DNA of 64,000 nt from the NCBI GenBank assembly GCA_944392135.1, contig CALXVQ010000001.1, positions 5,359 to 69,358 on the forward strand, given 5' to 3'. The position numbers and the translations under genes were made by a program. The notes under the pieces are model-generated. The model did no database searches. It was not told where the DNA came from and saw only the letters and a list, made by a program, of their open reading frames with translations. This document shows, piece after piece, positions 1,576 to 60,480 of the stretch (position 1 is the first letter of the stretch; each line of letters begins with the position of its first letter). The stretch is from an uncultured Rickettsiales bacterium. Its GTDB lineage: Bacteria > Pseudomonadota > Alphaproteobacteria > Rickettsiales > UBA1997.

Positions 1576-3465
1576 ATGTATTTAAGAAGAAATAATCTCA
1601 TAAGAAAAAAAATGGAAAGAAGAAGAATGTGGTTAGCTATTCTAATAACTTCATTTTTAATCTTTTTAATATTTTATATAGTAAACACTATAAAACAAAG
1701 TAAATATCAAAAATTCATTGATGGTAGTGTTTTAAATGAAATTGCCAATAATGAATCAAAATCCATTTTTAATATTAAAGAATTAAATATTAAAGAATTA
1801 AAAGATAGAATAATTTTATTAAATGTTTATAATATTCAAGATTTTTCTTACATCTTTTCACTCAATTTAGCTAATAAAATTGAACAAAAATATCATAACA
1901 AAGTGGTTGTAATTGATATAATTGCTGATAATTTTAATCTAGAAAAAAATACAATAATAAACTATATTATTAAGAATAATATAGAACGACCAGTTATTAA
2001 TATTGAAAATTTTGATTTAGGAAGTGATACAAGAAATTATGATAAATACTTTGTGTTAGTTGATAAAAATGGAATGATAAAAAATATTTTTCCATATGAT
2101 AACAGTGTAGAACAAACGATATATACAGAAATTGACAAAATTTTATCAAAAAAGCCAGATTTGAATATAAATGAATTGTCAAGTATTGATTTAGAAAAAA
2201 ATAATCAACCAGAATCATTTATAAAATCTTTAAGTCATATTTTATATCTTAGAAATATACAAGACACAAACGAAGGACCATATTTCATAATTGCCGATTC
2301 AAAAGGTAGAAAAATATTTTTAATAAAAGTTAATGGTGATATTGTGAATCAAATTGGTAGTGGCAGAAATGGTAAAGAAGACAAAAATGGTATAAATGCT
2401 AGTTTTTGTTATCCTTCTGGTATAACAATACAAGATAATAGATATTTGTATGTTGCTGACACTTGCAATGATTCTATTAGAAAAGTTGATTTAAAGACTA
2501 TGGAAGTTTCCACATTAATCAAAGATAACAAATATTTAAAAGATCCACTAAATGTAATTTTACTTAATGATTCGTTAATTATTTCAACAGCTTCACAAGA
2601 TACTTTATTAAAGTATGATTTATCAAGAGAAGAACTTACACCAATAGAATGTCAAGAATGTGATAAATATATTATTAAATTAGATAAATTTTTAGACAAA
2701 GTATATTTTATAAATACAAAAAATTATGGTTTATATAGTATAGATACAGATGATGTAATTACAAAAGAAATAGATTTCAATGAATTAAACGAAGCAAATG
2801 ATATTAAAATAACAGGTAATCATAATTTTCATATAGATGAAACCGGCCTATATTTTGTTGATAAATTTAAAAACAGAATTTTAAAAGTAAAAGACAACAA
2901 AACAGAAGAATATAGCACAAACGAAAATGAAAAATTATATAATTTACCAAATGACATTATTGATTTTAGAGATAAATTAGTATTTACAAATGATGGCGAT
3001 AAAAAAATAATTCAATTGGATAGAAATACTAAGAAATCAAAAATTATTAATATTAGTTTTGGCCCAGAATACAATACTTTAAGATTGCAAGAAGATGAAT
3101 TTTTAAATATTAACGATATCAACAACATATATATTAAAAATGGCATTGATAATAAAATTGAACTCAATTTAGATCCTAATTATTCATTTGAAAAAATGGC
3201 ACCACAAACTTTATCTTTATACAAAGAAGATTTAGAAAATAAATCTGCAATATTAATTAAAACATACAGCAAAGGCGAAATTTTAGATAATAAAGTTCTA
3301 CAACTTCCTGAATTAGAAGATAACACTAACTATTATTTAAAAGGTAGATTTTTTTATTGTAATTACAACAAAAAGACACCTTGTTTAGTAAACAAATATA
3401 GCAAAAAAATTATTTCTACTTCTTCAAGTGAAAATAATATAATTAAAATAGACTTTCTTTATTAA
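1576..3465 (+). CDS. membrane-anchored protein with thioredoxin-fold-like region (no CxxC) and NHL-type beta-propeller repeats
   Basis: N-terminal TM helix (WLAILITSFLIFLIFYIV). NHL-like repeat signatures are present: YPSGITIQDNRYLYVADTCNDSIRKVD, GLYFVDKFKNRILKV, LVFTNDGDKKIIQLD. The true start may be an internal Met. Confidence 0.55.
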   Translation: MYLRRNNLIRKKMERRRMWLAILITSFLIFLIFYIVNTIKQSKYQKFIDGSVLNEIANNESKSIFNIKELNIKELKDRIILLNVYNIQDFSYIFSLNLANKIEQKYHNKVVVIDIIADNFNLEKNTIINYIIKNNIERPVINIENFDLGSDTRNYDKYFVLVDKNGMIKNIFPYDNSVEQTIYTEIDKILSKKPDLNINELSSIDLEKNNQPESFIKSLSHILYLRNIQDTNEGPYFIIADSKGRKIFLIKVNGDIVNQIGSGRNGKEDKNGINASFCYPSGITIQDNRYLYVADTCNDSIRKVDLKTMEVSTLIKDNKYLKDPLNVILLNDSLIISTASQDTLLKYDLSREELTPIECQECDKYIIKLDKFLDKVYFINTKNYGLYSIDTDDVITKEIDFNELNEANDIKITGNHNFHIDETGLYFVDKFKNRILKVKDNKTEEYSTNENEKLYNLPNDIIDFRDKLVFTNDGDKKIIQLDRNTKKSKIINISFGPEYNTLRLQEDEFLNINDINNIYIKNGIDNKIELNLDPNYSFEKMAPQTLSLYKEDLENKSAILIKTYSKGEILDNKVLQLPELEDNTNYYLKGRFFYCNYNKKTPCLVNKYSKKIISTSSSENNIIKIDFLY

Positions 3466-6493: not shown

Positions 6494-7765
6494 GTGGTGT
6501 GAGGTCTCTAACCCCACACCTGATGTTTACAGATGATAGAGTTTTATAAAATCAATTTGCGAAGTTAATTTTTTTCTGTGGTGTGAAGTCTCCCGACCCC
6601 ATACCAAAAGAGACTACCATAGTATCCCATCCCAAGATTGCCACGGCTTTTTCAAAGCCTCGCAATGACGCTTCTTTTTTTCGTCATTGCGAGCGAAGCG
6701 AAGCAATCCATAAACCACCAATAGCTAATATAAAAATAGAAAAGAAAAGAATTCCATGAATGAATAATTATGTCTCATACCGAGATTGCCACGGCTTTTG
6801 CAAAGCCTCGCAATGACAGGCCAAGAATAAACGAGATTGCCACGAGTTGCAAGCAACTCTCGCAATGACGATGTGGGAGTACTGTCATTGCGAGGAGTGA
6901 AACGACGAAGCAATCCACAAACCACTGATATTTCATTTATTCACAGAAAAAATAAAAAATTTCACCAATAGAATAATTAATTATATAATTATAATAATTA
7001 ATACAAAAACAAAAAGAAAAAGAAGCTATTATTATTTATCAAGTCCAAGAATTAATTTCAAATGAAATATTAATTTTCAATTTTCAATTTCTTATAGATT
7101 ATCATAAAATTTTGTTTGACTATTATAATGTTCTATCCCGAGATTGCCACAGCTTTTTCAAAGCCTCGCAATGACAGGCTAAGAATAAACGAGATTGCCA
7201 CAGGCCTTCGGCCTTCGCAATGACGAGTTTGTGTATACTGTCATTACGAGCGAAGCGAAGCAATCCACAAACCACAAACTACCACCCCTTTGTCATTGCG
7301 AGCAAAGCGAAGCAATCCATAAACCACCAATAGCTAATATAAAAATAGAAAATAAAAAGAATTCCATGAATAAATAATTATGTCTCATCCCGAGATTGCC
7401 ACGGCTTTTTCAAAGCCTCGCAATGACGAGTTTGTGTATACTGTCATTGCGAGCAAAGCGAAGCAATCCACAAACCATCAATAACCTATTCATTCACAGA
7501 AAACCAAAAAAATTCACTACCACTCATCCCCTTCGTCATTGCGAGGAGTGAAACGACGAAGCAATCCATAAACCACTGATAGCTAATACAAAAATAGAAA
7601 AGAAAAGAATTCACTACTCTCGTCCCCTTTCGTCATTGCGAGAACCGAAGGTTCGTGGCAATCCATCAACCACCATTATTTTATTCATTCATAGAAAAAT
7701 AAAAGAATTCATCACCCTTTGCCCCCTTCGTCATTGCGAAGGCCAAAGGCCTGTGGCAATCCACA
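6494..7765. repeat. intergenic array 1 of hairpin modules (GTCATTGCGAG-[variable stem-loop]-GTGGCAATC and relatives)
   Basis: About 14 modules in both orientations, for example 6835-6869, 7193-7224 and 7631-7664. They are interleaved with AT-rich linkers (AAAATAGAAAAGAAAAGAATTC..) and GGTGTG..CACACC hairpins at 6494-6520 and 6578-6603. Confidence 0.9.
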
Positions 7766-8212
7766 ACCACTGTCATTTATAAATAAAATATAATAAACTA
7801 ATTTATTTATTAGTTTACCAGATTATAAAATAAGTCATCCCAGTTCTTATTATTTTCTTCTATTAATTCTATTTTTTTACTTCTAGAACCAGCTTTTAAT
7901 TGTTTTTCTCTTGAAATTGCATTATACATATCATCATAAACTTCATAATAAACCAATTTATCTACATTATATTTCATTGTAAATCCTTCTATTTTCTTGG
8001 ATTTGTGTTCCGATACTCGTCTTAATAAATCATTTGTGACACCAATATATAATGTACCATGTTTTTTATTTGCTAATATATATACATATGAAGTTTTATT
8101 CATTAATGAAGTATCTTTTTTTAAGAAAAATATAACAATTATTATTAAAATAAAGAGTTTTTTATTTTAATAAATTAATGGATTGCCACGAACCTTCGGT
8201 TCTCGCAATGAC
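7730..8212 (-). mobile_element. 483-bp unit: GIY-YIG gene bounded by inverted hairpin modules (copy 1)
   Basis: Ends are GTCATTGCGAAGGCCAAAGGCCTGTGGCAATCC (7730-7762) and GGATTGCCACGAACCTTCGGTTCTCGCAATGAC (8180-8212), in inverted orientation. The whole unit is near-identical to 59620-60102 on the other strand. Mobility is a hypothesis. Confidence 0.45.
7810..8103 (-). CDS. small GIY-YIG nuclease family protein (YhbQ/COG2827-like), copy 1
   Basis: 97 aa. The sequence SYVYILANKKHGTLYIGVTNDLLRRVSEHKS...KLVYYEVY...AISREKQLK carries the GIY...YIG motifs plus conserved R and E. Identical protein to 59729..60022. Confidence 0.85.
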   Translation of the reverse strand: MNKTSYVYILANKKHGTLYIGVTNDLLRRVSEHKSKKIEGFTMKYNVDKLVYYEVYDDMYNAISREKQLKAGSRSKKIELIEENNKNWDDLFYNLVN

Positions 8213-8875
8213 GGTGTGTGGATGTCGGTTCTCGCAGTGACGAGTTGGTGGGTAATTATCATAATGATGAGTTGGCATGTAGATCGTCACCATTCCGAGA
8301 TTGCCACAGCTTTTGCAAAGCCTCGCAATGACAGGCCAAGAATAAACAAGATTGCCACAGGCCTTCGGTCTTCACAATGACGAGTTTTGGTTGGGTATGG
8401 TAGTCGCCATATCAAGCTTGCCACGAGTTGCAAGCAACTCTCGCAATGACGAGTTGGTGTATACTGTCATTGCGAGCGAAGCGAAGCAATCCATAAATTT
8501 ATTGTAGTGTAGTTGTGAAGTTGGTTTTTGTTAGTCTTGGGTGTTGGATAGGGATATCTAACGCCACAAAGGGGTGCAAAAAAATGGTAAACTCAACCCC
8601 CCACTGACTTCGTCAGCACCCCCCTTACAAAGGGAGGCAAGCCCCACAAACCAATACTCACCACCCTTCGTCATTGCGAAGGCCAAAGGCCTGTGGCAAT
8701 CCATAAACCACAAAACCACCACAAAAAAACAGAAAAAAAAGAAATCACTATTATTTATCAAGTTAAAGAACTAATTTTTAATGAAATATTAATTTTCAAT
8801 TTTCAATTTTCAATTTCTCTCTCAATCCCCTTGTTGCTTTGCAACTTCCCCTCTTACAAATGGAGTCACTTGTCT
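8180..8875. repeat. intergenic array 2 of hairpin modules plus C-rich box and TTTTCAA heptamer tract
   Basis: Modules at about 8180, 8296, 8350, 8416, 8466 and 8668. C-rich box at 8594-8645, with a degenerate copy at about 8821-8870. (TTTTCAA)x3 at about 8795-8818. Confidence 0.9.
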
Positions 8876-9240: not shown

Positions 9241-10908
9241 ATGAGTAATGATTTTTATAAATTAAGAATTTTTCTTTTTAAAGATGATGTTGAGAATTTA
9301 AATGAATGTTTTAATATAGATAAAATAAAAGATAAACAAAATTATAAAGAATTAAAATTTGAAAATGATATTGAAGCAAAAGGATATATTTGGAATAATA
9401 TATCTGCTGATGATAATAAACCAAAATGGTTTAATATTATAGATTTTTTTGATGATGATAATTCAAATCAAATTAATACTTTAAAAAATACAATACATTC
9501 AATTTTTGTATTAAAAGTTCAAAATAGAATATTTGGATTTAATTTTGGACAAGGATATTGGGCTTTTAATGATGAAAAAATAGAAACTGATTTTGGTTTA
9601 AGGATTCTTTTAAATATTGTTGATAAATTTAATCATCTATCATCTCTATCTATAGATGAAAATATAATAAATAAAAAAATAGATGCAAATAAATCAAATG
9701 AACTTAATGTTTTTACACCAAATAAAGATATGGATATAGTAAAGTCATTTATTGGAACAGTTAAGGAAGAATATAAAAATATTTTTTCAGAAAAAATTAG
9801 TGCAACTATAAATTCAATATTAATTAATTATAATATTGAAAATGCCAAAGATGATTTAATAAAATTATGTTTAAATTTAATAAAAATTAATTCTATAAAA
9901 GATTATGAAAAAAATATAAAATATCAATGGATTATTAATAAAAGATTAGAAAAAGATCAAGTTATATTAAATAATATAAATCAAATAATTATTGACGATT
10001 TAAAGAATAAAAATGATAACTTACAATTAAATTTATTTGATTTATCTTTTGAAAATTCATCAACATCTTATTTTAAGTATGCATTAAACGATCATACTAA
10101 ACATAAAAATTTAAAAGAATTTAATGATTTATCTATAAATGATTATTATGCTGAAATTTCAAAAAGAGGTGTTACTATTAATAATTTAGAAGATTTAAAA
10201 CATCATTTCATTTTGGATCAAAACAATGAAATACTTGCTAGTATTTATAATTCTTTGATTGCAGAAGTCAATTTTAAAAATTCAATTTATATATTATATC
10301 AAGGCAAGATTTTTAAAATATCTACTGATTATAAAAATGAAATAGATAATTTTTTTCAAACTTTGATTAATGACTCTCAAGATATAAAACTACCAGATTA
10401 TAATTCACAAAATGAACATGAATATAATGAAATTATAAGTAATAATTATGGTTATGTATGTTTAGATGCAAAGAATGTTACAATAAGAGATAGTGATAAA
10501 TTTGAAATTTGTGATGTTTTATCAAATAAAAAAGAATTTTTTTGTATTAAACATAAAAATTATTCATCAACATTAAGTCATCTTTTTAACCAAGCTCTAA
10601 ATTCTATAAAAATATTAAGAAATGATAAAAAGATAAGAGAAAAAGCAAATGATCAAATAAAAAAAGAACTGAATAAAAAATCAAAATATTTTAATATAAA
10701 TGAAGATTTTTCTGATTATCAAATTACTGATGATTCTTTAAAAGATTCTACTATTGTATTTGCTGTAATAGATAAAGAAACCAATAAAAGAAAATTACCA
10801 TTTTTTAGTGTAATTTCCTTAAAACAAGCAGTTGATTTATTATATGAAAAGGGATATAAAGTAAAATTTTGTTGGATTAATAATAATAGTTTAAAAAATG
10901 AAAAATAA
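9241..10908 (+). CDS. TIGR04141/DUF6119-like protein with a putative PD-(D/E)xK-type nuclease motif
   Basis: Family-like landmarks recalled from memory: N-terminal YKLRIFLFKDD, KPKWFNIIDFF, FGFNFGQGYWAFNDEKIETDFGLRILLN, and C-terminal LDAKNV...FEICDVLSNKKEFFCIKHK..STLSHLFNQALNS...LPFFSVISL. Overlaps hsdS by 11 nt. Confidence 0.5.
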   Translation: MSNDFYKLRIFLFKDDVENLNECFNIDKIKDKQNYKELKFENDIEAKGYIWNNISADDNKPKWFNIIDFFDDDNSNQINTLKNTIHSIFVLKVQNRIFGFNFGQGYWAFNDEKIETDFGLRILLNIVDKFNHLSSLSIDENIINKKIDANKSNELNVFTPNKDMDIVKSFIGTVKEEYKNIFSEKISATINSILINYNIENAKDDLIKLCLNLIKINSIKDYEKNIKYQWIINKRLEKDQVILNNINQIIIDDLKNKNDNLQLNLFDLSFENSSTSYFKYALNDHTKHKNLKEFNDLSINDYYAEISKRGVTINNLEDLKHHFILDQNNEILASIYNSLIAEVNFKNSIYILYQGKIFKISTDYKNEIDNFFQTLINDSQDIKLPDYNSQNEHEYNEIISNNYGYVCLDAKNVTIRDSDKFEICDVLSNKKEFFCIKHKNYSSTLSHLFNQALNSIKILRNDKKIREKANDQIKKELNKKSKYFNINEDFSDYQITDDSLKDSTIVFAVIDKETNKRKLPFFSVISLKQAVDLLYEKGYKVKFCWINNNSLKNEK

Positions 10909-12025
10909 TTGGGAAATAAAAAAACTTAAAGAATTAGGAGCTATTTTTTTAGGTGGGACACCAAATACATCTAAAAAAGAGTATTGGAATGGTGATATTA
11001 ATTGGCTTACACCATCTGAAGTTTCAAAATTAAAAAGTAAGTTTATTTTTTCTACAGAAAAAACAATTACAGAGTTAGGACTAAAAAATAGTTCTGCAAA
11101 AATTTTGCCAAAAAATTCTTTAATTGTTTGTACAAGGGCAACTATTGGGGATCTGTGTATAAATAAAATAGACATGTGTACCAATCAAGGTTTTAAAAGT
11201 ATAATTGTAAATAAAAATAATAATGTAATTTTTCTTTATTTTTTGCTTTTATTTAATAGAAGAAAAATTATAGAAAAAGCTAGTGGTAGTACATTTTTAG
11301 AAATATCAAAATTTGATTTTGAAAATTTGTCTTTTCCCATCCCCCCACTGGAAGAGCAAGAGAAAATTGTATCAATTCTTTCAAAGCAAGATGAGGTGAT
11401 TGAGAAGCTTGAGAAGTTGATTGAGTTGAAGGTTAGGCAGAAGAAGGGCTTGATGCAACGACTTTTAAGTGGTAAGTTAAGGCTAAAAGGTTTTAGTGGT
11501 GATTGGAAGGAAAATATTATGCAAAGTATAATATTGATTTTTAAAAAAACAAAACATAATTCTTCTGATGGCAAAAACAATGGAAAATATCCGTTTTTTA
11601 TAAATAATTCTGAAAGTTTCTTAAAATTTTTAGATGAATTTGATTATGATGCTGAATGTATAATAGCTAATACAGGTGGAAATGCTTTTTTTGATTATTA
11701 TAATGGTAAATTTTCTGCTAGTAGTGATTGTTTTATATTTTCATCTAAAATTAATACATTATTTTTATATTATTTTTTAAAATCAATTGAAAAAACTGTA
11801 AATATAGTAGGTTTTGCTGGTTCTGGAATAAAACATTTAAATAAAAAATGGTTTTATAAATTAAAAATACTAATCCCACCAACAATAGAAGAGCAATCGG
11901 CTATTGCTTCAATTCTTTCGAAGTGTGATGAGGAAATTGAGTTGTTGAAGAAGAAGTTGGGGTTGTATAGGGGGCAAAAAAAGTGGCTTATGGAAAAGCT
12001 GTTGAGTGGTGAAATAAGGGTTTAG
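10898..12025 (+). CDS. hsdS: type I restriction-modification specificity subunit HsdS
   Basis: Two target-recognition domains, each followed by the conserved coiled arm. The arms are PPLEEQEKIVSILSKQDEVIEKLEKLIELKVRQKKGLMQRLLSGKLRL and PPTIEEQSAIASILSKCDEEIELLKKKLGLYRGQKKWLMEKLLSGEIRV. N-terminal GGTPNTSKKEYWNGDINWLTPSEV. Confidence 0.88.
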   Translation: MKNNWEIKKLKELGAIFLGGTPNTSKKEYWNGDINWLTPSEVSKLKSKFIFSTEKTITELGLKNSSAKILPKNSLIVCTRATIGDLCINKIDMCTNQGFKSIIVNKNNNVIFLYFLLLFNRRKIIEKASGSTFLEISKFDFENLSFPIPPLEEQEKIVSILSKQDEVIEKLEKLIELKVRQKKGLMQRLLSGKLRLKGFSGDWKENIMQSIILIFKKTKHNSSDGKNNGKYPFFINNSESFLKFLDEFDYDAECIIANTGGNAFFDYYNGKFSASSDCFIFSSKINTLFLYYFLKSIEKTVNIVGFAGSGIKHLNKKWFYKLKILIPPTIEEQSAIASILSKCDEEIELLKKKLGLYRGQKKWLMEKLLSGEIRV

Positions 12026-12028
12026 GCA

Positions 12029-12973
12029 ATGGAAACTAATGTTTATTTTTGTAAGAAAAATGGTATACTTTTGATGGCATATCAAAATGGTAAAAATCAA
12101 AATATATTTTTGCGAGTTAGTCGTGCTGATTATGCTCCATTTATAGAAACTTGTTTAATATGTGATAATAGTTATGATATTGAAAAAGTTATTACAAATT
12201 GTTATGAATATCCTATAATGGAAAAAAAATATATGAAAATTGGTGTTAAATATAAACATATTTGGAAACCTTTTATAATTAATAATGTCGAAAATGAACT
12301 TGAATTTACAATTTCTGAAGCATATCGTGCAAAAAGGGATTTGCAGATTCTTATAGAGAAAATGCAGGAGTTGCTTTTGTTTGTTGAACCAAGTAATGAA
12401 GGTTTAAAATCTTATAGTCATAAAGCAAGGGAATTATTGTTTTTGGCTTGTTCTGATTTTGAATCGATGTTAAAAAAATATAATTTTGGTAAAAATGAAA
12501 GAATGAATGATTATATTGAAATAATGAAATATATTGATTTGTCTAAATTTAAAATACAGCTTGTTGGTTATAGTAAATCGTATAAATGTTCTCCTTTTGA
12601 AAATTGGAATGTGAAAGATCCATCTAAATCATTATCTTGGTATTATGCTTATAATCAATTAAAACATAATATAGATAAAAATTTTCATTTGGCAACATTG
12701 GAAAATTGTATTAATGCAATAAGTGCAAATATAATATTATTTACAATTAGATATTCTACGAATTATATATATGCAAAAGATGATACTTGTTCAAGTTTGA
12801 TTAGGGGTTCATTTGATTATAGAATAGAAAATTCTATGGATTTTTATATACCTATTTTTGAAGGTGAAAGAAGTTATAGTGGGGCATTTGGGAATAGCTA
12901 TAAATTTTATAATGGTGAAGTGGTATCAAATATTTATGATATTGTAAAACCATTGTCATTTGTGGAAATATAA
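12029..12973 (+). CDS. hypothetical protein inserted between hsdS and hsdR
   Basis: 314-aa ORF, 3 nt after hsdS and 16 nt before hsdR. Predicted helical C-terminal half with SWYYAYNQLKHNIDKNFHLATLENCINAISANIILF. No family recognised with confidence. The true start may be the internal MAYQNG. Confidence 0.5.
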   Translation: METNVYFCKKNGILLMAYQNGKNQNIFLRVSRADYAPFIETCLICDNSYDIEKVITNCYEYPIMEKKYMKIGVKYKHIWKPFIINNVENELEFTISEAYRAKRDLQILIEKMQELLLFVEPSNEGLKSYSHKARELLFLACSDFESMLKKYNFGKNERMNDYIEIMKYIDLSKFKIQLVGYSKSYKCSPFENWNVKDPSKSLSWYYAYNQLKHNIDKNFHLATLENCINAISANIILFTIRYSTNYIYAKDDTCSSLIRGSFDYRIENSMDFYIPIFEGERSYSGAFGNSYKFYNGEVVSNIYDIVKPLSFVEI

Positions 12974-12989
12974 ACAATTAAGGTAAAAT

Positions 12990-15900
12990 ATGGTGAAATA
13001 TAGTGATTTTATTGAAAAAATTTCTTCTCAACAACCGGCGATTAAGTTGTTGGAAAATATGGGGTATAAGTATATGTCTCCGTTTGAGGCTTTTGAGCAA
13101 AGGGGGGATTATAGAAATGTTGTTTTGAAGGATGATTTGAGGGAATTTTTGCAAAGGCAAAGGTTTGAGTATGATGGTAAGGAAAGTGCTTTTTCGCAGG
13201 CTAATATAAATAATGCTATTAAGGATGTGGATGTGTCGTTGAATAATGGGTTGGCACAGGCATCGCAGGATGTTTATGATATGTTGTTGTATGGTAAAAG
13301 CTATAATGAAATATTGGCTGATGGTTCTATAAAATCGTTTAATTTGAAATATGTGGATTGGGAGAATATAAATAATAATATTTTTAGGGTTGTTGATGAA
13401 TTTACTGTTTCTAATATTGATACAAGAGAAAATAAAAGGCCGGATATTGTTGTTTTTGTGAATGGTTTGCCTTGGGTTGTTATTGAATGTAAAAGATCAT
13501 CTGTTGATGTTGGTATGGGGGTTAGACAAAATTATGAAAATTTTTCTGTGATTCCGCAGTTGTTTAAGCTTGCACAAATAGTTTTGGCTTTGAATCCTAA
13601 TGAGGTTAAGTATGGAACTTGTGGAACTGGTAGGGAGTATTTTGTTAATTGGAAGGAAGAGTTTGATGGTTGGCTTGAAGAAAAATGTAAAGAGTATGTA
13701 GTTGATAGGAGTGTTAGGGAACAAGATAGGGTTTTGATTTCTTTGCTGTCAAAGGAAAGATTGTTTTTAATTGTGAAAAATTATATTTTGTATGATTATG
13801 GAATAAAGAAAATAGCAAGATATCAGCAGTTTTTTGCATGTGAAAAAACAATAAAAAAAGTTAAAAGTGGAAAGGGTGGATTTATATGGCATACACAGGG
13901 TAGTGGTAAGTCTTTAACTATGGTTATGCTTGTAAAAAGGATTAAAGAAGAATCTATTAAAAATGATTGTTTTTTTAAGAATCCAAGGTTTTTGATGGTT
14001 TGTGATAGGCTTGAATTGGATGAGCAATTGATGAATAATTTTGCTAAAACAGGTATGCGACCTAATAGGGCTACGACTGGAAATAATTTAGTAAGTTTGA
14101 TAAAAGATGAAGGTAAAACTATTATTACTACTGTTATTCATAAATTTGAAACGGCACAAAGTAAATTGCAACCTATAAATGGTAAAAATATATTTATATT
14201 TGTTGATGAATGTCATAGGACTCAGTCAGGAAATTTTCATAATTATATGAGAGATATATTGCCTAATGCTATTAAGATAGGTTTTACAGGAACTCCAATT
14301 TTTAAAAAGGAAAAGAAACAAACACATAGAATTTTTGGTGATCTTATTGATTCTTATACAATTCTTGAAGCAGAAAAGGATAAAGTTATTGTTCCATTAA
14401 ATTATGAAGGAAGGATAATTCCACAAAAAATAGCTGATGATAATACTATTAATAAATGTTTTGAACAAATATGTTTTAATGTGAGTGATGAAGAAAAGGA
14501 GAAGTTAAAAACAAAATGGAGTAGTTTGACAAAAATAATGCAAGTGGATTCAAGATTGCAAATAATAGCTTTTGCTATTGCTAAACATTTTGCTAGTTTT
14601 AAAAATGAGATGGTGAAAGCTATGGTTACTGAAAGTTCAAGAGTTAATGCTATTAAGTTGCATAGATTTTTAAGAGATAATGGTATAAGAAGTAAAGTTG
14701 TTATTTCACCGAATACACTTAAAGCAGAAGGAATTGAAGAAGCTAGTGATTATGATTTAAAATATATTGAAGATTTTTTTAAGGAAGAAGTGGAAAGGGA
14801 TTTTGGAAAGAATTATGAAAAATATGAAAGATATGTTAGAAGTAATTTTATTGATTCAGAAGGTTGTGTTGATGTAATTGTAGCAAAAGATAAATTATTG
14901 ACAGGTTTTGATGCTCCAATAGCAAAAATATTATATATAGATAAACCTTTAAGGGATCATAATTTATTGCAAGCAATAGCAAGGGTGAATAGAATTTATA
15001 CTGGAAAAGAGTATGGGCAAATTATTGATTTTTATGGTGTTTTTGGGAATTTAAAGTCGGCCATTGATATTTATTCTAATGCAGAATATGGACTTGGTAA
15101 GTTTGATGAAAATGATATAAAAGGAACATTATTAATAAAAGATGATTTAATTAGAGAATTAAGACTTAATTATGAAAATTTAATATCTATTTTTAGTGAT
15201 TTTGATATTCATGATAAAAATGTAGATATAGAAGTTTTAGAGGATTATTTAAAAGATTCTAGTGAAGATAAAGAAATTGGAAAAATATCGGATAAAAGAA
15301 AAGATTTTTATGATAAACTAAATAAATTTTCATTATCTTTGGAATGTGTATTAAGAAATTATGAAGCTTATAAGTCTCTTGAAGAAGAAGAGATTAAAAA
15401 GTATAAAGAAGATTTAAAATTTTTTCAAGCATTAAAAAGTTCTATAAAAATTAGATATGGTGATGATTCAAAAATTGATTTTTCACTAGAAGATAAACAA
15501 ATAAAAAGATTATTAAATTCATATCTTAGTTCTGAAATGGATAAAATTATTGTTAATAATTTTAAAATTACAGATAAAGAAGCTATGGAAAGAGAATTGG
15601 CAAAAATGTCGGGAAATAAAAGTAAAGCTGATGCAATAGCTACTCGTATGGATGCACTAATTAAGGAAGAATTTTTTAAAGATCCATTGTTGTATAAAAA
15701 TTTTACTGATAAAATTAAAGAAACTATTGAAGAATATGAAAATGAAAGAAGAGATGAAGATTATTTTCTTGCTATGCAAAAAATAGCAGAAGATTATAGG
15801 GAAGGTTTTACAGGAAATAAATATCCAGAAAATATAGAAAATGATGCAAATTCAAAATCATTCTATGGTTGTTTGAAAATATCTATAGATGAAAAAAGGA

Positions 15901-16157
15901 ATATTATAGAAAATAGTGAGTTTGATTTAGAACTTGGTAATTTATCAATTAAAATAAAAGAATTGTATAAAGATAAAATTAAACCAAATTGGGAGAATAA
16001 TATGGTAATAAGGCAAAGTATTAATAGAGAAATTGATAAATTTTTATTTAAATTAATGGATGATTTCCATATTGATTTAAGTGATGATGATTTAGATAAA
16101 ATTGAAGAAAATATTTTTAAAACAGCTGTAAAAAGATATGAATACAAACTTATTTGA
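12990..16157 (+). CDS. hsdR: type I restriction endonuclease subunit HsdR
   Basis: HSDR_N nuclease motif RPDIVVFVNGLPWVVIECKRS. Helicase motif I HTQGSGKSLTM and DEAH-type motif II FVDECHRTQ. Later motifs FTGTP and LLTGFDAP...QAIARVNR. 1055 aa. Confidence 0.92.
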   Translation: MVKYSDFIEKISSQQPAIKLLENMGYKYMSPFEAFEQRGDYRNVVLKDDLREFLQRQRFEYDGKESAFSQANINNAIKDVDVSLNNGLAQASQDVYDMLLYGKSYNEILADGSIKSFNLKYVDWENINNNIFRVVDEFTVSNIDTRENKRPDIVVFVNGLPWVVIECKRSSVDVGMGVRQNYENFSVIPQLFKLAQIVLALNPNEVKYGTCGTGREYFVNWKEEFDGWLEEKCKEYVVDRSVREQDRVLISLLSKERLFLIVKNYILYDYGIKKIARYQQFFACEKTIKKVKSGKGGFIWHTQGSGKSLTMVMLVKRIKEESIKNDCFFKNPRFLMVCDRLELDEQLMNNFAKTGMRPNRATTGNNLVSLIKDEGKTIITTVIHKFETAQSKLQPINGKNIFIFVDECHRTQSGNFHNYMRDILPNAIKIGFTGTPIFKKEKKQTHRIFGDLIDSYTILEAEKDKVIVPLNYEGRIIPQKIADDNTINKCFEQICFNVSDEEKEKLKTKWSSLTKIMQVDSRLQIIAFAIAKHFASFKNEMVKAMVTESSRVNAIKLHRFLRDNGIRSKVVISPNTLKAEGIEEASDYDLKYIEDFFKEEVERDFGKNYEKYERYVRSNFIDSEGCVDVIVAKDKLLTGFDAPIAKILYIDKPLRDHNLLQAIARVNRIYTGKEYGQIIDFYGVFGNLKSAIDIYSNAEYGLGKFDENDIKGTLLIKDDLIRELRLNYENLISIFSDFDIHDKNVDIEVLEDYLKDSSEDKEIGKISDKRKDFYDKLNKFSLSLECVLRNYEAYKSLEEEEIKKYKEDLKFFQALKSSIKIRYGDDSKIDFSLEDKQIKRLLNSYLSSEMDKIIVNNFKITDKEAMERELAKMSGNKSKADAIATRMDALIKEEFFKDPLLYKNFTDKIKETIEEYENERRDEDYFLAMQKIAEDYREGFTGNKYPENIENDANSKSFYGCLKISIDEKRNIIENSEFDLELGNLSIKIKELYKDKIKPNWENNMVIRQSINREIDKFLFKLMDDFHIDLSDDDLDKIEENIFKTAVKRYEYKLI

Positions 16158-16836
16158 AAAATATAATATAATACTTATTAGAAAAGATATAAAAAATTTT
16201 ATTTTAAGAATAAAAAATAATCTTGAAATATCTTTATCTGTTCCATTATCGGCAACAGATGAAGATATTGATAAATTTTTAAGTAATAAAGAATATTGGA
16301 TTCAAAAAGAAATAAATAAATTCAATTCTGTAAGACAATATGATAAAATAAATTTATTTTGTGAAGGTGGAGAAGTTAGAATTTTAGGAAGGCAATATAG
16401 AATTTCTGTAAAAATAAGTGAAAAAAATAATATTTTTATTTATGACAATCAATTAATTATAGAAACAAATGATATAGATAATATTAAAAAGCAATACGAA
16501 AATTATTACAAAAAAGAAGCAATAAAATGTTTTAATGAGAGACTGAATCATCAATATAATATTGTAGGAAAATATGGTATTGAAAAACCAAATATAAAAA
16601 TTAAAAAAATGAAAAATATTTGGGGGTCATATACAAAAAGAACAAATACAATTTTATTAAATTACTATTTATATACTGCACCAATATATTGTATTGATTA
16701 TGTAATTTTACATGAATTAACACATACAAAATATTATAATCATAGTGAAGATTTTTATTTATTTTTAACTTTTTATATGCCTGATTGGAAAGTTAGAAAA
16801 AAAGAATTGGATTATAATTATTCTAGGTATTTATAA
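16138..16836 (+). CDS. DUF45/YgjP-like (M48-type) zinc metallopeptidase
   Basis: HELTHTKYYNHSEDFY (HExxH followed by NHS..F). Start overlaps the hsdR stop by 20 nt. This family is commonly linked to hsdR genes. Confidence 0.78.
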   Translation: MNTNLFEKYNIILIRKDIKNFILRIKNNLEISLSVPLSATDEDIDKFLSNKEYWIQKEINKFNSVRQYDKINLFCEGGEVRILGRQYRISVKISEKNNIFIYDNQLIIETNDIDNIKKQYENYYKKEAIKCFNERLNHQYNIVGKYGIEKPNIKIKKMKNIWGSYTKRTNTILLNYYLYTAPIYCIDYVILHELTHTKYYNHSEDFYLFLTFYMPDWKVRKKELDYNYSRYL

Positions 16837-20944: not shown

Positions 20945-21930
20945 TCAAGAATAAACGAGATTGCCATGGCTTTTTCAAAGCCTCGCAATGACGAGTTTGT
21001 GAATATCACCCTTTGCCCCTTCGTCATTGCGAGACTTCGTAGAAGTCGTGGCAATCCATAAACCACTAATAGTCAATACAAAAATAGAAAAGAAAAAGAA
21101 TTCACTATTATTTAATAAACCAAAGAATTAATTTTCAATTTTCAATTTTCAATTTTTAATTTCTTTCTCAACCCCCCTGTTGCTTCGCAACATCCCCCCT
21201 TACAAAGGGAGGCAAGCCCCCATAAATCACCACTCACTGCTCTTCGTCATTGCGAGGAGTGAAACGACGAAGCAATCTACAAACAACCAATAATAAACAC
21301 AAAAACAAAAAAGAAAAAGAAATCACTATTATTTATTAAATTAAAGAATTAATTTTCAATTTTCAATTTTCAATTTCTTATGGATTGCCACGAGTTCTAC
21401 AAACTCTCGCAATGACGGTGTGGGTTGAGTGTGATTGTTGCCATACTGAGATTGCCACGGCTTTTTCAAAGCCTCGCAATGACGGTTCTTTTTTTCGTCA
21501 TTGCGAGCGAAGCGAAGCAATCCATAAATCACAAAAAGTTAATACAAAAACAGAAAAGAAAAAAAGCATTCGCTATTTTTAATCAAGTCAAAGAACTAAT
21601 TTTAAATAAAATATTAATTTTCAATTTTCAATTTTCAATTTTCAATTTCTCTCTCAACCCCCCTGTTGCTTCGCAACTTCCCCCCTTACAAAGGGAGGCA
21701 AGCCCCATAAGCCACCAATAACAAACACAAAAACAGAAAAGAAAAAGAATTCCATGAATGAATAATTATACCCCATACTGAGATTGCCACGAGTTGCAAG
21801 CAACTCTCGCAATGACGAGTTTGTGAATACCACCTCTTGCCCCCTTCGTCATTGCGAGGAGTAAAACGACGAAGCAATCTACAAACAACCAATAATAAAC
21901 ACAAAAACAAAAAAGAAAAAGAATTCACCA
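20945..21930. repeat. intergenic array 3 of hairpin modules, C-rich boxes and heptamer tracts
   Basis: Modules at about 20956, 21023-21057, 21245, 21383-21416, 21438, 21495, 21779 and 21846. C-rich boxes at 21169-21221 and 21655-21706. Confidence 0.9.
21618..21645. repeat. (TTTTCAA)x4 heptamer microsatellite
   Basis: Four perfect tandem TTTTCAA units directly abutting a C-rich box. The same tract occurs with 2-4 units at about 7073, 8795, 21133 and 21349, and inverted at 27892 and 28479. Confidence 0.9.
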
Positions 21931-25927: not shown

Positions 25928-26002
25928 GCGGGTATAGCTCAGTGGTAGAGCACAACCTTGCCAAGGTTGGGGTCGCGAGTTCAAGCCTCGTTGCCCGCTC
26001 CA
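25928..26002 (+). tRNA. tRNA-Gly (anticodon GCC)
   Basis: Hand-folded cloverleaf. Acceptor GCGGGTA/TGCCCGC, D arm GCTC-AGTGGTA-GAGC, anticodon arm CAACC-TTGCCAA-GGTTG, T arm GCGAG-TTCAAGC-CTCGT, encoded CCA. Confidence 0.92.
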
Positions 26003-27734: not shown

Positions 27735-28925
27735 TAGAGTAGGGCAAATTCTTTTGTTTTTTTGTTTTTGTTTTTTTATTGGTAGTGAATTCTTTTGTTT
27801 TTCTGTTTTTATATTGACTTTTTGCGGATTAGGGGCTTACCTCCCTTTGTAAGGGGGGAAGTTGCGAAGCAACAGGGGGGTTGAGAAAAAATTGAAAATT
27901 GAAAATTGAAAATTGAAAATTAATACATAAGAAATTGAAAATTGAAGCACAAAGTGGGAAAATGATAATACTTGCATAATCATTTTAGCTTGTTGTCCCA
28001 CGAAGTGCGAAACGAACGAAGTGAGGATTAAAATTAAAAATTAATACTTCATTTGAAATTAATTCTTTGGTTTATTAAATAATAGTGAATTCTTTTATTT
28101 TCTATTTTTATATTAACTATTAGTGGTTTGTGGTTTGCTTCGTTATTTTACTTCGGATAATAATGAATAGGGCGAATGGTGGTGATTTCTTTTTCTTTTC
28201 TGTGAATGAATAAAATAATAGTCGTTTGTGGATTGCCACAGGCCTTCGGCCTTCGCAATGACGAAAAGTGGTGAGTAGTGGTTTATGGTGGCTTACCTCC
28301 CTTTGTAAGGGGGGAAGTTGCGAAGCAACAGGGGGGTGAGAGAGAAATTAAAAATTAAAAATTGAAAATTAATACATAAGAAATTAAAAATTGAAGCACA
28401 AAGTGGAAAAATGATATGCTTGCATAATCATTTTAGCTTGTCGTCCCACGAAGTGCGAAACAAACGAAGCATAAGAAATTGAAAATTGAAAATTGAAAAT
28501 TGAAAAATAGTTCTTTGACTTGATAAATAATAGTGAATTCTTTTATTTTCTGTTTTTGTATTTATTATTAGTGGTTGTGGATTGCCACAGGCCTTCGGCC
28601 TTCGCAATGACGAAGGGGGTAAAGGGTGATTAATCCTTTTGTTTTTCTGTGAATAAATAAAAGACTAGTGGTTATGGATTGCTTTGTCGTTTCACTCCTT
28701 GCAATGACAAAGGGGGATGGTTGTGGATTGCTTCGCTCCGCTCGCAATGATGAAGGGGTAAAGGGTAGTATTCATAAACTCGTCATTGCGAGAGTTCGTA
28801 GAACTCGTGGCAATCTCGTTATTCTTGGCTTGTCATTGCGAGAACCGAAGGTTCGTGGCAATCTCGTTATGGCAACAGCCACACCCAACCCGCACTGTCA
28901 TTGCGATGGCTTGAAAAGCCTGTGA
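27735..28925. repeat. intergenic array 4 of hairpin modules, inverted C-rich boxes, heptamer tracts and a duplicated ~100-nt unit
   Basis: C-rich boxes (reverse orientation) at 27832-27893 and about 28290-28345. Modules at about 28229, 28578, 28676, 28724, 28781, 28832 and 28896. The ~100-nt unit is at 27921-28020 and 28370-28470. Confidence 0.9.
27892..27919. repeat. (TTGAAAA)x4 heptamer microsatellite (reverse orientation of TTTTCAA)
   Basis: Four perfect tandem units. A further four-unit tract lies at 28479-28506. Confidence 0.9.
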
Positions 28926-41726: not shown

Positions 41727-41763
41727 TTGTTGACTTTAATAAAACATAGAATATTATGTCTTT

Positions 41764-41810
41764 TGGAGATGGAGTTCTCCTTTAACCGCAACTAGCTGAT
41801 AACTCCTACT
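41764..41810 (+). promoter_or_regulatory. fluoride riboswitch (crcB RNA motif) candidate
   Basis: UGGAGAUGGAGUUCUCCUUUAACCGCAACUAGCUGAUAACUCCUAC matches the remembered consensus GGnGAUGGnnUUCnCC...AACCGC...GCUGAU.A(nnn)CCUAC. The pseudoknot pair is GGAGU / ACUCC. Located 27 nt upstream of the ATG of a cation/H+ antiporter gene. Confidence 0.68.
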
Positions 41811-41836
41811 TTTAAAAACAATATAAGGAGTTTTGT

Positions 41837-46264: not shown

Positions 46265-47254
46265 TTATTTATTATCTTTCGCTAATGGGTGTAGAGTATT
46301 TACTATGTTTTTTAATTTATCATCTACTATATGTGTATATATTTGAGTGGTTGAAATATCACTATGTCCTAATAATTCTTGCAAAATTCTTAAATCAGCA
46401 CCCCTATTTAATAAATGTGTTGCAAATGAATGTCTTATAATATGTGGTGAAATTTTATTAGTATCAATATTACATTCTATTGCTAATTCTTTTAAATTTA
46501 ATGCAAATATTTGTCTTGTAATATGATTATCTTTTTGTTTGTATTTTATTTTTGTATCTTTTTTATTTTTAGAAAAATTTACAAGTGTAGTCCATAACCA
46601 TTGTGAATGTTGATTTTGTAGTAAATTATCTCTTAAATTAAGATATTTTATTAAAATATTTTTTGCTTGTTGATTTATAGGTACAAGTCTTTCTTTATTT
46701 CCTTTTCCTTTAATTATTAAAAAATCATCTATTGTATATAAACCATCTTTTCTATATTTTTTTTGTATATCACTAATTTTTAATTCAACCAATTCAGAAA
46801 CTCTCATTCCTGTGGCATATAATAGTTCAAGCATGCAATAAAATTGTATTCCATAATTACTAGTATCTTCTTTTGCTTTTGATAAAAGTTTATCAACTTC
46901 TTCTTCTGTTAAAAAAGTTGGCAATTTTTCTTGTTTTTTAGGTAATTCTAATAATTCTGCTGGATTTTCTGTAATAATATTTTCTAATTGTAAAAAAATA
47001 AAAAATTGTCTTAAAGTTGATATATTTCTTGATAATGTAGATATAGAAAAGCCTTGTTTATATAAATTTTCTATATATTTTTTTAGATCATTTAATGTAA
47101 TATTGTTTATATTGTCTTTTTTTATAAACTCAAAAAAATTATTTAAATCATTTTTATATGATTCAATAGTATTAATGGAATAACCTTTTTCAGCAATTAA
47201 ATTATTTAAAAAATTATTAATATATTTCTCAATCATAGTATATTTATAAATCAT
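46265..47254 (-). CDS. XerC/XerD-family tyrosine recombinase
   Basis: N-terminal SAM-like domain (YSINTIESYKNDLNNFFEF). Catalytic region ATGMRVSELVEL...HIIRHSFATHLLNRGADLRILQELLGHSDISTTQIYTH. The start is probably the internal MIEKYI. Confidence 0.8.
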   Translation of the reverse strand: MIYKYTMIEKYINNFLNNLIAEKGYSINTIESYKNDLNNFFEFIKKDNINNITLNDLKKYIENLYKQGFSISTLSRNISTLRQFFIFLQLENIITENPAELLELPKKQEKLPTFLTEEEVDKLLSKAKEDTSNYGIQFYCMLELLYATGMRVSELVELKISDIQKKYRKDGLYTIDDFLIIKGKGNKERLVPINQQAKNILIKYLNLRDNLLQNQHSQWLWTTLVNFSKNKKDTKIKYKQKDNHITRQIFALNLKELAIECNIDTNKISPHIIRHSFATHLLNRGADLRILQELLGHSDISTTQIYTHIVDDKLKNIVNTLHPLAKDNK

Positions 47255-52611: not shown

Positions 52612-53465
52612 TATTGGTTTTTTTGTAGTTTATGGATTGCTTTGCTTCGCTCGCAATGACGAAGGGGGGCTTATGGATTGCTTTTTCGTTTACAATGACA
52701 GTACATACAAACTCGTCATTGCGAAGGCCGAAGGCCTGTGGCAATCTTGGTATGAGACATAATTATTCATTCATAGAATTCTTTTTCTTTGCTGTTTTTG
52801 TATTAACTTTTTGTGGTTTATGGATTGCTTCGTCGTTTCACTCCTCGCAATGACAGTACCCTTGTATCGTCATTGCGAGGCTTTGAAAAAGCCGTGGCAA
52901 TCTCGTTTATTCTAGGCTCGTCATTGCGAGGCTTTGAAAAAGCCGTGGCAATCTCAGTATGGCAACCACTGCACACAACCCAAGCTTGTCATTGCGAAGG
53001 CCGAAGGCCTGTGGCAATCCATAAGAAATTAAAAATTAATATTTCATTTGAAATCAATTCTTTAACTTGATAAATAATAATAATTTCTTTTTCTTTTCTG
53101 TTTTTGTATTTGCTGTTGATAGTGAATTCTTTTGTTTTTTTGTGAATGAATAGACTATCGGTGGTTTGTGGATTGCTTCACTTTGCTCGCAATGACAGGG
53201 GGGCAAAAAGTGGTGAATTCTTTTTCTTTTCTGTTTTTGTATTAACTTTTAGTGGTTTGTGGATTGCTTCGTCGTTTCACTCCTCGCAATGACAGTACCC
53301 TCGCATCGTCATTGCGAGACTTTGAAAAAGCCGTGGCAATCTCGTTTATTTTAGGCTCGTCATTGCGAGAGTTGCTTTGCAACTCGTGGCAATCTCAGTA
53401 TGACAACCGCTACACACAACCCAAACTTGTCATTGCGAAGGCCGAAGGCCTGTGGCAATCTTGAT
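52612..53465. repeat. intergenic array 5 of hairpin modules, including two copies of a ~208-nt four-module super-unit
   Basis: About 12 modules. Super-units at 52813-53020 and 53252-53460. Confidence 0.9.
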
Positions 53466-59127: not shown

Positions 59128-59652
59128 TTGTGGTGTTGGGTATCTTGCCCAACACCAAGGCTATCAAAAACCAACTTCACAACTACATCACAATAAATTT
59201 ATGGATTGCTTCGCTTCGCTCGCAATGACGAAAGGGGTGAATGGTAGTGAATTTTTTTGGTTTTCTGTGAATGAATATATTGTTGATGGTTTGTGGATTG
59301 CTTCGTCGTTTCACTCCTCGCAATGACGAAAAAAAGAACTGTCATTGCGAGGCTTTGAAAAAGCCGTGGCAATCTCGTTATGGCAACCACCACACTCAAC
59401 CCACACCGTCATTGCGAAGGCTGAAGGCCTGTGGCAATCTTGGGATGGAACACTATGGCAATTAATCAAAACTTGTCATTGCGAGAACCTACCCTACACA
59501 TTGTCATTGCGAGAACCGAAGGTTCGTGGCAATCTCGTTTATTCTTGGCCTGTCATTGCGAGGCTTTGAAAAAGCCGTGGCAATCTCGATATGATGACCA
59601 CCATACCAAATCAAAACTCATCATTGCGAGAACCGAAGGTTCGTGGCAATCC
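59128..59652. repeat. intergenic array 6 of hairpin modules
   Basis: About 8 modules. Its outer end (59128-59230) is homologous, in inverse orientation, to the outer end of array 2 (8466-8570). Confidence 0.9.
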
Positions 59653-60102
59653 ATTAATTTATTAAAATAAAAAACTCTTTATTTTAATAATAATTGTTAT
59701 ATTTTTCTTAAAAAAAGATACTTCATTAATGAATAAAACTTCATATGTATATATATTAGCAAATAAAAAACATGGTACATTATATATTGGTGTCACAAAT
59801 GATTTATTAAGACGAGTATCGGAACACAAATCCAAGAAAATAGAAGGATTTACAATGAAATATAATGTAGATAAATTGGTTTATTATGAAGTTTATGATG
59901 ATATGTATAATGCAATTTCAAGAGAAAAACAATTAAAAGCTGGTTCTAGAAGTAAAAAAATAGAATTAATAGAAGAAAATAATAAGAACTGGGATGACTT
60001 ATTTTATAATCTGGTAAACTAATAAATAAATTAGTTTATTGTATTTTATTTATAAATGACAGTGGTTATGGATTGCCACAGGCCTTCGGCCTTCGCAATG
60101 AC
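59620..60102 (+). mobile_element. 483-bp unit: GIY-YIG gene bounded by inverted hairpin modules (copy 2)
   Basis: Ends are TCATTGCGAGAACCGAAGGTTCGTGGCAATCC (59621-59652) and GGATTGCCACAGGCCTTCGGCCTTCGCAATGAC (60070-60102). It is the reverse complement of 7730-8212 with only a handful of mismatches outside the ORF. Confidence 0.45.
59729..60022 (+). CDS. small GIY-YIG nuclease family protein (YhbQ/COG2827-like), copy 2
   Basis: Protein identical (97/97) to 7810..8103. The nucleotide sequence also appears identical where checked by eye. Confidence 0.85.
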   Translation: MNKTSYVYILANKKHGTLYIGVTNDLLRRVSEHKSKKIEGFTMKYNVDKLVYYEVYDDMYNAISREKQLKAGSRSKKIELIEENNKNWDDLFYNLVN

Positions 60103-60480
60103 AAAAAGGGACGAGAGTAGTGAATTCTTTTCTTTTCTATTTTTATATTAGCTATTGGTGGTTTATGGATTGCCACGACTTCTACGAAGTCTCGCAATGA
60201 CAAAAGGGGACGAGAGTAGTGAATTCTTTTCTTTTCTATTTTTATATTAGCTATTGGTGGTTTATGGATTGCTTCGCTTCGCTCGCAATGACGAAGGGGG
60301 TGAGTGGTAGTGAATTTTTTTGGTTTTCTGTGAATGAATGAAATATCAGTGGTTTATGGATTGCTTCGCTTCGCTCGCAATGACAAAAAAACCGTCATTG
60401 CGAGAGTTGCTTGCAACTCGTGGCAATCTCGTTATTCTTGTCTCGTCATTACAAAGGCCGAAGATTTGTGGAAATGACAA
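60058..60480. repeat. intergenic array 7 of hairpin modules
   Basis: Modules at about 60070, 60165, 60268, 60358 and 60394, plus a degenerate one at about 60446. Tandem ~100-nt periodicity at 60103-60300. Confidence 0.9.

Follow-up and report, generated by a model that had tools for sequence, protein, structure and literature searches.

Which enzyme serves a dispersed hairpin repeat that has no transposase at its side? This question is raised by a stretch of 64,000 nucleotides (in the following: the window) of contig CALXVQ010000001.1, in which two identical genes for a small GIY-YIG nuclease each stand between oppositely oriented members of an abundant hairpin repeat family. According to our analysis, the locus is very probably an Ssn/SRM system, judged by sequence comparison: a site-specific single-stranded DNA (ssDNA) nuclease, Ssn, together with Ssn-related hairpin motifs (SRM), here in an uncultured AT-rich Rickettsiales bacterium. 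The initial annotation had proposed that the nuclease is the cognate enzyme of the hairpin repeats, in a layout resembling that of repetitive extragenic palindromes (REP) and the REP-associated tyrosine transposase (RAYT). This idea is right and was shown on the enzymes tested by Chenal et al., homologues from Neisseria and Wolbachia (PMC11893778); the window protein shares 53% identity with a Neisseria homologue. Yet it has been in print since 2025, and the accompanying statement that the biological role of the enzyme is unknown, with the novelty this implied, was out of date.

The reference case is SsnA of N. meningitidis, a 94-aa single-domain GIY-YIG protein filed in CDD as cd10448 (GIY-YIG_unchar_3) (Chenal et al. 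2025, Nat Commun 16:2388, PMC11893778). SsnA binds the hairpin repeat NTS (CGTCATTCCCGCGMAVGCGGGAATCYRG), which flanks its gene, solely as ssDNA; the cut falls a few nucleotides upstream of the repeat. The enzyme is inactive on double-stranded DNA (dsDNA), on RNA and on the reverse strand, and the RNA form is not bound. Cutting depends most on the three nucleotides before the palindrome and binding most on the C after it; when the sequence of the NTS stem was changed with pairing kept, activity was abolished in Neisseria. The mutants Y6A, Y17A and E64A kept binding and lost cutting, and deletion of ssnA led to about five-fold more transformation by repeat-bearing DNA. The repeat was found nearby in 71% of homologues and on both sides in 42%, and repeat-rich genomes were enriched in symbionts, including Rickettsia and Wolbachia (PMC11893778).

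In the 97-aa protein encoded in the window, Pfam detected the GIY-YIG domain (PF01541, E=3.6e-17); the only other match above the cut-off was a marginal, overlapping one to the related T5orf172 family. An NCBIfam scan gave nothing beyond a sub-threshold match to a group I intron endonuclease, and the PADLOC defence models returned only marginal, partial matches with E above 8e-4. The comparison with the SsnA orthologue of N. gonorrhoeae (from locus L062) revealed 53% identity over 90 residues (E=3e-38). Here, Y8, Y19 and E66 align with Y6, Y17 and E64 of the Neisseria protein, where mutation abolished cleavage, and all three are invariant in an alignment of 25 homologues. The AlphaFold model shows a confident GIY-YIG fold (predicted local distance difference test, pLDDT, 93.5). 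Nearest to it in a structure search of solved structures were distant UPF0213 proteins, Slx1 and the N-terminal domain of UvrC; a PDB search found no Ssn structure among the solved entries. The solved UPF0213 proteins are only distant relatives (profile E=1e-7, 31% identity in the structural alignment). E. coli YhbQ is presumably a member of UPF0213. The initial designation of the protein as 'YhbQ-type' was imprecise as to the family, which is the cd10448/Ssn clade according to PMC11893778. The close homology to the Neisseria protein suggests that the window protein is a member of this clade.

Copy A of the gene, named ssn here, is located at 7810..8103 on the minus strand and was identified from the list of open reading frames (ORFs), Pfam, homology and AlphaFold; copy B, at 59729..60022 on the plus strand, was identified from the ORF list and the alignment of the cassettes. 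As the initial annotation had recognised, both encode one and the same 97-aa protein, and none of the 294 nucleotides differs. Each copy lies in a 483-bp unit bounded by one hairpin module per strand, with the GTCATT heads pointing outward. At copy A, the upstream module (SRM) is found at 8181..8212 on the minus strand, its ssDNA folding as a bipartite hairpin, and the downstream module at 7730..7761 on the plus strand, both with the head facing away from the gene. At copy B, the upstream module lies at 59620..59651 (plus strand) and has the head ATCATT, i.e. one mismatch, and the downstream module lies at 60071..60102 (minus strand). The inverted module ends of both units had been described in the initial annotation, with coordinates for copy B that were off by one; three of the four inner ends were also quoted correctly, and one reads CCAC instead of CCAT. 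The two arms of one unit are family members and not exact inverted copies: 25 of 32 positions are common, and the distal hairpins are different. When unit 7730-8212 (reverse complement) is aligned with unit 59620-60102, mismatches occur only at unit positions 1, 422, 449 and 468. The identical tract from position 2 to 421 comprises the upstream module, the 5' leader, the ORF (unit 110-403) and 18 nt past the stop codon. A search for target-site duplications or direct repeats flanking either cassette found none.

The modules have the form GTCATTGCGAG, variable hairpin, GGCAATC, and 57 full modules are present in the window, corresponding to about 0.9 per kb. Their head motif GTCATTGCGA, with at most one mismatch, was found 61 times, compared to 1.27 occurrences expected from shuffles (shuffle maximum 6). 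All 57 modules are intergenic and fall into five arrays, which total 8.9% of the window and have a GC content of 0.36-0.41 against 0.26 for the window. Array 1 (6636..8701, 19 modules in both orientations, GC 0.365 against 0.261) carries ssn copy A, and array 5 (59204..60428, 12 modules), between pyrG and carD, carries ssn copy B. The other three have no ssn gene: array 2 (20959..21879, 8 modules) is located downstream of a porin gene, array 3 (28231..28863, 6 modules) between rmuC and a transketolase gene, and array 4 (52635..53460, 12 modules) adjoins a cation ATPase gene. Head-to-head pairs of modules with spacers of 9-30 nt are frequent. In addition, tandem units of 92-99 bp, each composed of a module and an AT-rich spacer, occur beside both ssn copies, at 60093-60388 and at 7498-7772 (97-98 bp).

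The consensus of the modules reads (C/T)GTC-ATTGC-GA(G), distal stem-loop, (C)GTG-GCAAT-C-CA. The base at -1 is C in 36 and T in 21 modules, and the tail is CCA in about half of them and CTC or CTT in the others. By folding prediction, six distal-stem variants give one bipartite ssDNA hairpin with a basal stem of 5 bp, a small internal loop, a distal stem of 5-6 bp and a loop of 3-4 nt, often GAA or GTA. Covariation was counted in an alignment of 17 distinct long modules, with slid pairing partners and 500 shuffles as controls. The basal helix shows practically no variation. In the distal stem, each of the six pairs was changed on both sides, and 93% of the cells are paired. Over the whole structure, 95.7% of the cells are paired as opposed to 25-56% with the partners slid, and the covariation score was reached by 0 of 500 shuffles. 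This freely varying distal stem contrasts with the NTS of Neisseria, where a new stem sequence with intact pairing led to loss of activity (PMC11893778). Since the modules of the window keep the positions that are critical in the experiments (GTC before the stem, a stem started by ATT and the C after it), we filed them as Ssn/SRM.

Ssn would recognise these modules when they are extruded as ssDNA hairpins. Most likely, it reads the invariant parts by sequence, namely the 5' head (C/T)GTC, the basal stem ATTGC/GCAAT and the 3' C, whereas the distal stem-loop would be read purely as structure. Cleavage would take place on the same strand, a few nucleotides before the head on its 5' side, and the 57 modules of the window would be the genomic target sites of Ssn. 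With the heads pointing outward, two cuts are predicted per cassette, on opposite strands at the outer edges.

The linkage of gene and repeat is not confined to the window. More than 7,900 homologues were scored, and the identity is 50-66% even between very distant phyla. For the analysis of flanking modules, 80 homologue loci (L005-L084) from reference genomes were examined, which take in Actinomycetota, Campylobacteraceae, Cyanobacteria, Dehalococcoidia, Bacillota, Bacteroidota, Planctomycetes and Omnitrophota as well as candidate-phyla lineages (Saccharibacteria, Woesebacteria) and Neisseria gonorrhoeae. A GTC-hairpin-C module with the head pointing outward lies within 200 nt of the gene at 67 of the 80 loci, and on both sides at 47. 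The flanks contain 133 modules in total against 4.8 in shuffled flanks, and the density near the gene is 4.0 per kb per strand compared to 0.31 at distances of more than 800 nt. Modules in the wrong orientation were found upstream at 18 and downstream at 17 loci. The association of the gene clade with the repeats across genomes, which the initial annotation had anticipated, is clearly present in these data.

Two repeat classes dominate: ATTCC(C/G)G...GGAAT, known from Neisseria and Bradyrhizobium, and the class of the window, ATTGCGAG...GCAAT, which was found at 19 of the 80 loci in many phyla. The class is mirrored in the protein. At loci of the ATTGCGAG class, residue 72 is G in 22 of 22 and residue 76 is K in 20 of 22 cases (local motif KAGSRxKK); at loci of the ATTCC(C/G)G class, residue 72 is W in 35 of 35 and residue 76 is W in 32 of 35 cases (local motif KKWNRxWK). 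Residue 72 tracks the repeat class without exception in the 57 classified loci. Of the six G-type proteins at unclassified loci, four are likewise accompanied by variants of the ATTGCGAG class or by copies of it at a greater distance. In the window, residues 71-76 are encoded at 7876-7893 (minus strand) and 59939-59956 (plus strand), and in the predicted model residues 72 and 76 are placed at the turn between the helix of the catalytic Glu (59-71) and the next helix (74-84). Sequence comparison makes these two residues candidate specificity determinants. The G-type and W-type proteins probably form clades, so that the match between class and residue is not a count of independent events. Each of the two groups spans many phyla, which indicates that the pairing of residue and class has been kept over long times.

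At this point we want to note several observations that weigh against an assignment to Ssn/SRM. The published degenerate SRM motif (HGTCWYN(0-2)YYVSBRHN(0-5)WNVSBRGN(0-2)RNCYNB) has 0 matches on both strands of the window, and the assignment of the modules therefore rests on architecture and gene linkage. In the Neisseria locus L062, the same motif detects 5 copies of NTS; it matches within 200 nt of the gene at 21 of the 80 loci, and at 0 of the 19 loci with the GTCATTGCGA class. It misses the class of the window because it demands two pyrimidines where this class has GC. The class retains the head, a stem that begins with A/T and the 3' C, and the miss is a limit of the search pattern. For this reason, published counts of repeat-linked homologues are probably underestimates. 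The ATTGCGAG class was probably under-counted in Chenal et al. 2025, the main text of which, figures and tables aside, gives no sequence of this class (PMC11893778). Furthermore, two abundant short module types, with the distal parts GAGTGAAACGACGAA and CGAAGCGAA, fold no better than shuffles when nearest-neighbour parameters are used. We take these two types to contain GNA mini-hairpins, GCGAAGC-like and GTGAAAC-like. GNA mini-hairpins are unusually stable in DNA and are probably underrated by the energy model. A further point concerns the function. The activity of Ssn in the window organism is presumed from its homologues, and the control of natural transformation exerted in Neisseria may have no counterpart in a Rickettsiales bacterium. 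By analogy, Ssn may trim module-bearing ssDNA, either incoming or derived from replication or recombination, and may modulate recombination at the arrays. Finally, the case for gene conversion between the two cassettes, presented in the following, is suggestive, as the contigs compared come from different metagenome samples and perhaps from different strains.

Identity of the two copies had initially been taken to imply recent duplication or gene conversion. Gene conversion is the better explanation. Beyond the 483-bp units, the similarity between the flanks of copies A and B remains at about 90-93%, which means that the duplicated segment is larger and older than the identical core. Sequences of related strains could be assigned to one or the other copy. 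Locus L092 runs on into carD and downstream genes and is therefore the locus of copy B. The downstream flank of L098, a contig of 593 bp with no flanking genes, is 91.5% identical to that of copy B and 83.2% to that of copy A, and L098 was assigned to copy B; for L097, the downstream flank is 91.8% identical to copy A and 83.9% to copy B. In these relatives, A-type and B-type ORFs differ by 19-20 nt, which speaks against a recent duplication, whereas copies A and B of the window differ by 0. Recent gene conversion in the window lineage is the simplest reading of this difference. The ssn gene of the window is nearer to the A-type of the relatives (14 nt) than to the B-type (20-21 nt), and conversion probably proceeded from A to B. 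Taken by their sequences, the two cassettes look like old inverted duplicates with a 420-bp core recently homogenised by gene conversion, and not like a new duplication. The identical 420-bp tract begins at the head of the upstream module, one base inside.

The arrays are also subject to turnover. Between L092 and the window, they differ by insertion or deletion of whole modules downstream of ssn copy B. In the upstream module of this copy, the distal stem is GGCCGAAGACC in L092 (45-200) and AACCGAAGGTT in the window (59576-59730), with flanks that are otherwise conserved. In array 5, tandem spacers are 98% identical, yet successive distal stems are unrelated (AGGCC, ACTTC, CGAAGCG). It looks as if distal hairpins were swapped independently of their surroundings. 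Relatives with PyrG proteins of 88%, 83% and 80% identity were sought as empty sites; the synteny around pyrG is not conserved, and no modules are found at those loci. In L085 and L086 (PyrG 88% identical), the 13.6 kb around pyrG contain 0 modules, the intergenic regions are tight and the gene order is another one. Expansion of the repeats and rearrangement therefore seem to be specific for the window lineage. In a more distant relative (L093, Ssn 78% identical), ssn is located at 2957-3253, about 900 bp upstream of a transketolase gene, in a neighbourhood unlike those of both window copies; the gene-less array 3 of the window lies on the other side of transketolase.

These observations can be joined in a tentative proposal, which we consider rather doubtful as a whole: cassettes and arrays homogenise themselves through cuts by Ssn and repair from another array, and the specificity for the hairpin class is largely set by G72/K76 as against W72/W76. 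Ssn would cut 5' of a module in exposed ssDNA, and the break would be repaired from another array. In this way, the core of the cassette would be copied, and distal hairpins would be exchanged among the modules. Such a process would explain why the identity of the two cassettes sets in one base into the upstream module's head. It would also explain the unrelated distal stems within 98% identical spacers and the strain-specific stem at an orthologous module.

The assignment to Ssn/SRM has to be weighed against other explanations. The most serious of them sees the module-ssn-module cassette as an autonomous selfish mobile element, similar to an insertion sequence (IS) or a homing element, in which Ssn moves the cassette and seeds new modules as RAYT presumably does for REPINs. 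We consider this unlikely and rate it lower than Ssn/SRM, although the idea was also raised by Chenal et al. (PMC11893778). The near-identity of the two cassettes indeed starts at the outer end of the upstream module and reaches, with three mismatches, the outer end of the downstream module; however, target-site duplications are absent at both. GIY-YIG nucleases hydrolyse DNA with no covalent intermediate, and Ssn alone would therefore be incapable of strand transfer. The two predicted cuts would also fall on opposite strands, unlike those of IS200/IS605. The position of the gene beside transketolase in the relative with the 78% identical Ssn, unlike either window copy, would suit a mobile cassette, but related strains have kept the copy B locus and, judged from the similarity of the flanks, that of copy A as well, which points to vertical inheritance. 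Whole modules were gained or lost between strains, as expected for such an element, whereas three of the five arrays have no ssn gene. Further support comes from the 50-66% identity of the protein across most bacterial phyla and from the occurrence of many homologues on very short contigs, as is the case for multi-copy sequences. On the other hand, no homologue was found at E<=1e-10 in a collection of 50,697 phage records. In a plasmid collection, 32 of 72,556 records contain a homologue. These are mostly replicons of at least 0.6 Mb, including Neisseria records of about 2 Mb, and 31 of the 32 were typed as non-mobilizable.

It is highly improbable that the modules act at the RNA level, as terminators, mRNA stabilisers or a small structured RNA, with an incidental or regulatory proximity to the GIY-YIG gene. 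Such a role was suggested for many REPs by Di Nocera et al. (PMC3733652) and would be in line with hairpins that are all intergenic and have a covarying distal stem. However, a search of array 1 against Rfam, both at the gathering score and with E up to 5, matched no family to the modules. No terminator-like site with a T-run was found in the 600-bp region scanned around copy B, and the modules are without T-runs. Both orientations of the module occur inside one intergenic region, the module class covaries with protein residues across phyla, and the enzyme of Neisseria fails to bind the hairpin as RNA (PMC11893778).

The initial annotation had stated that no transposase or integrase is associated with the arrays. 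A Pfam analysis of 50 ORFs of more than 120 aa (36 scanned and 14 precomputed), among them every non-nested one, revealed no Y1/HUH or other transposase domain in the window. As to integrases, a XerC/D-like tyrosine recombinase is encoded at 46265..47254, more than 5 kb from any array. That the modules are classical REPs served by a RAYT or another transposase elsewhere in the genome, with the GIY-YIG gene as a trapped passenger, is hardly credible: our view is limited to 64 kb of the genome, and the clustered arrays with head-to-head dimers resemble bacterial interspersed mosaic elements (BIME), but the head is (C/T)GTC and not GTAG, CGTC-type REPs were found unlinked to any transposase (PMC3733652), none of the 50 window ORFs has a transposase domain, and a gene placed between modules recurs in many phyla, at 47 or more of the 80 loci, as a passenger would not.

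The surroundings of the arrays are those of an ordinary chromosome, with pyrG, carD, ruvAB, recR, rmuC, transketolase, pfk, iPGM, a porin gene and a type I restriction system. Among named relatives, the closest by PyrG are metagenome-assembled genomes labelled Rickettsiales (63-80% identity), and the same sequences are present in several environmental metagenome assemblies. The region 9241-16836, which adjoins array 1, encodes a DUF6119 protein, HsdS, an unannotated ORF of 314 aa, HsdR and a YgjP-like metallopeptidase. At 41756-41815 (plus strand), a fluoride riboswitch (Rfam RF01734, 55.7 bits) immediately precedes a gene (41837-43039, plus strand) whose product has a sodium/hydrogen exchanger domain. 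A Fic/DOC family protein is encoded at 43245-44345 and a tRNA-Gly(GCC) at 25928-26002; neither of them adjoins an array.

With Ssn, a long-standing puzzle has found its answer, namely the enzyme partner of CGTC-type REPs without a transposase, and this answer has been in print since 2025; the window led to the same system independently, starting from the bare sequence. The window adds a second major repeat class, ATTGCGAG...GCAAT, beside Ssn genes in many phyla; a literature search with the repeat sequence itself returned only unrelated primer matches. Moreover, natural covariation separates the part of the hairpin that is probably read by sequence from the part that is probably read by structure, and the window gives evidence for the homogenisation of cassettes by gene conversion. 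The correlation between residues and repeat class is relevant to the programmable ssDNA cutters that have been proposed from these enzymes. If residues 72 and 76 set the class specificity, it would be swappable by design.

A comparison with known systems places the window locus at different distances from several of them. The solved UPF0213 proteins BH0048 (PDB 1ZG2) and EF2693 (PDB 1YWL) correspond in size and GIY-YIG fold, but the relation is distant, and we know of no linkage of UPF0213 proteins to these repeats. Homing endonucleases of the I-TevI type share the catalytic domain, and the conversion of one cassette by the other recalls homing. However, the window protein has no separate DNA-binding domain and lies outside of introns and phages, and these endonucleases cut dsDNA, whereas members of the Ssn family cut ssDNA. 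Chenal et al. describe the repeat-ssnA-repeat layout across bacteria and liken NTS-ssnA-NTS to insertion sequences and to REP/BIME/IS200 systems (PMC11893778). In contrast to an insertion sequence, the cassettes of the window contain no transposase, lack target-site duplications and are found at loci that are conserved in related strains. With REP/REPIN-RAYT and IS200/IS605, the window shares an enzyme gene between inverted dispersed hairpin repeats, mosaic arrays and a hairpin that would be read in ssDNA; here, however, the enzyme is a hydrolytic GIY-YIG nuclease and not of the HUH/Y1 type, the head is CGTC/TGTC and not GTAG, and, unlike IS200/IS605, Ssn is predicted to cut on opposite strands at the two cassette ends.

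Closer is the likeness to the 'CGTC-tagged REPs', which include dRS3 of Neisseria as well as RPE-4 and RPE-6 of Rickettsia and to which no dedicated transposase could be linked (Di Nocera et al. 2013, PMC3733652). They comprise four families, are common in Alphaproteobacteria, including Rickettsia and Wolbachia, and mostly form head-to-head dimers and clusters. The window modules have the same kind of (C/T)GTC head, A/T-started stem (ATT), CCA tail and head-to-head dimers. They differ in the stem, which is described as 8-9 bp with loops of 4-5 nt for the CGTC-tagged REPs (PMC3733652) and consists here of a 5-bp basal stem, an internal loop and a variable distal stem of 5-6 bp.

The closest counterpart is the Ssn/NTS system of Neisseria. 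The stem of the window modules is ATTGCGAG...GCAAT compared to ATTCCCGC...GCGGGAAT in Neisseria, and an internal loop divides the hairpin into two parts, with a distal stem that is hypervariable and covaries. The protein falls into the KAGSRxKK and not into the KKWNRxWK subgroup, and two copies of the cassette are present. In common are a GIY-YIG protein with a single domain and about 95 aa (53% identity, catalytic Tyr, Tyr and Glu conserved), a gene with hairpin repeats on both sides, and many clustered intergenic copies of these. Both repeats follow the plan GTCATT, stem, AATC, and the host of the window is a member of the Rickettsiales, a symbiont-rich group that was named as repeat-rich by Chenal et al. 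(PMC11893778).

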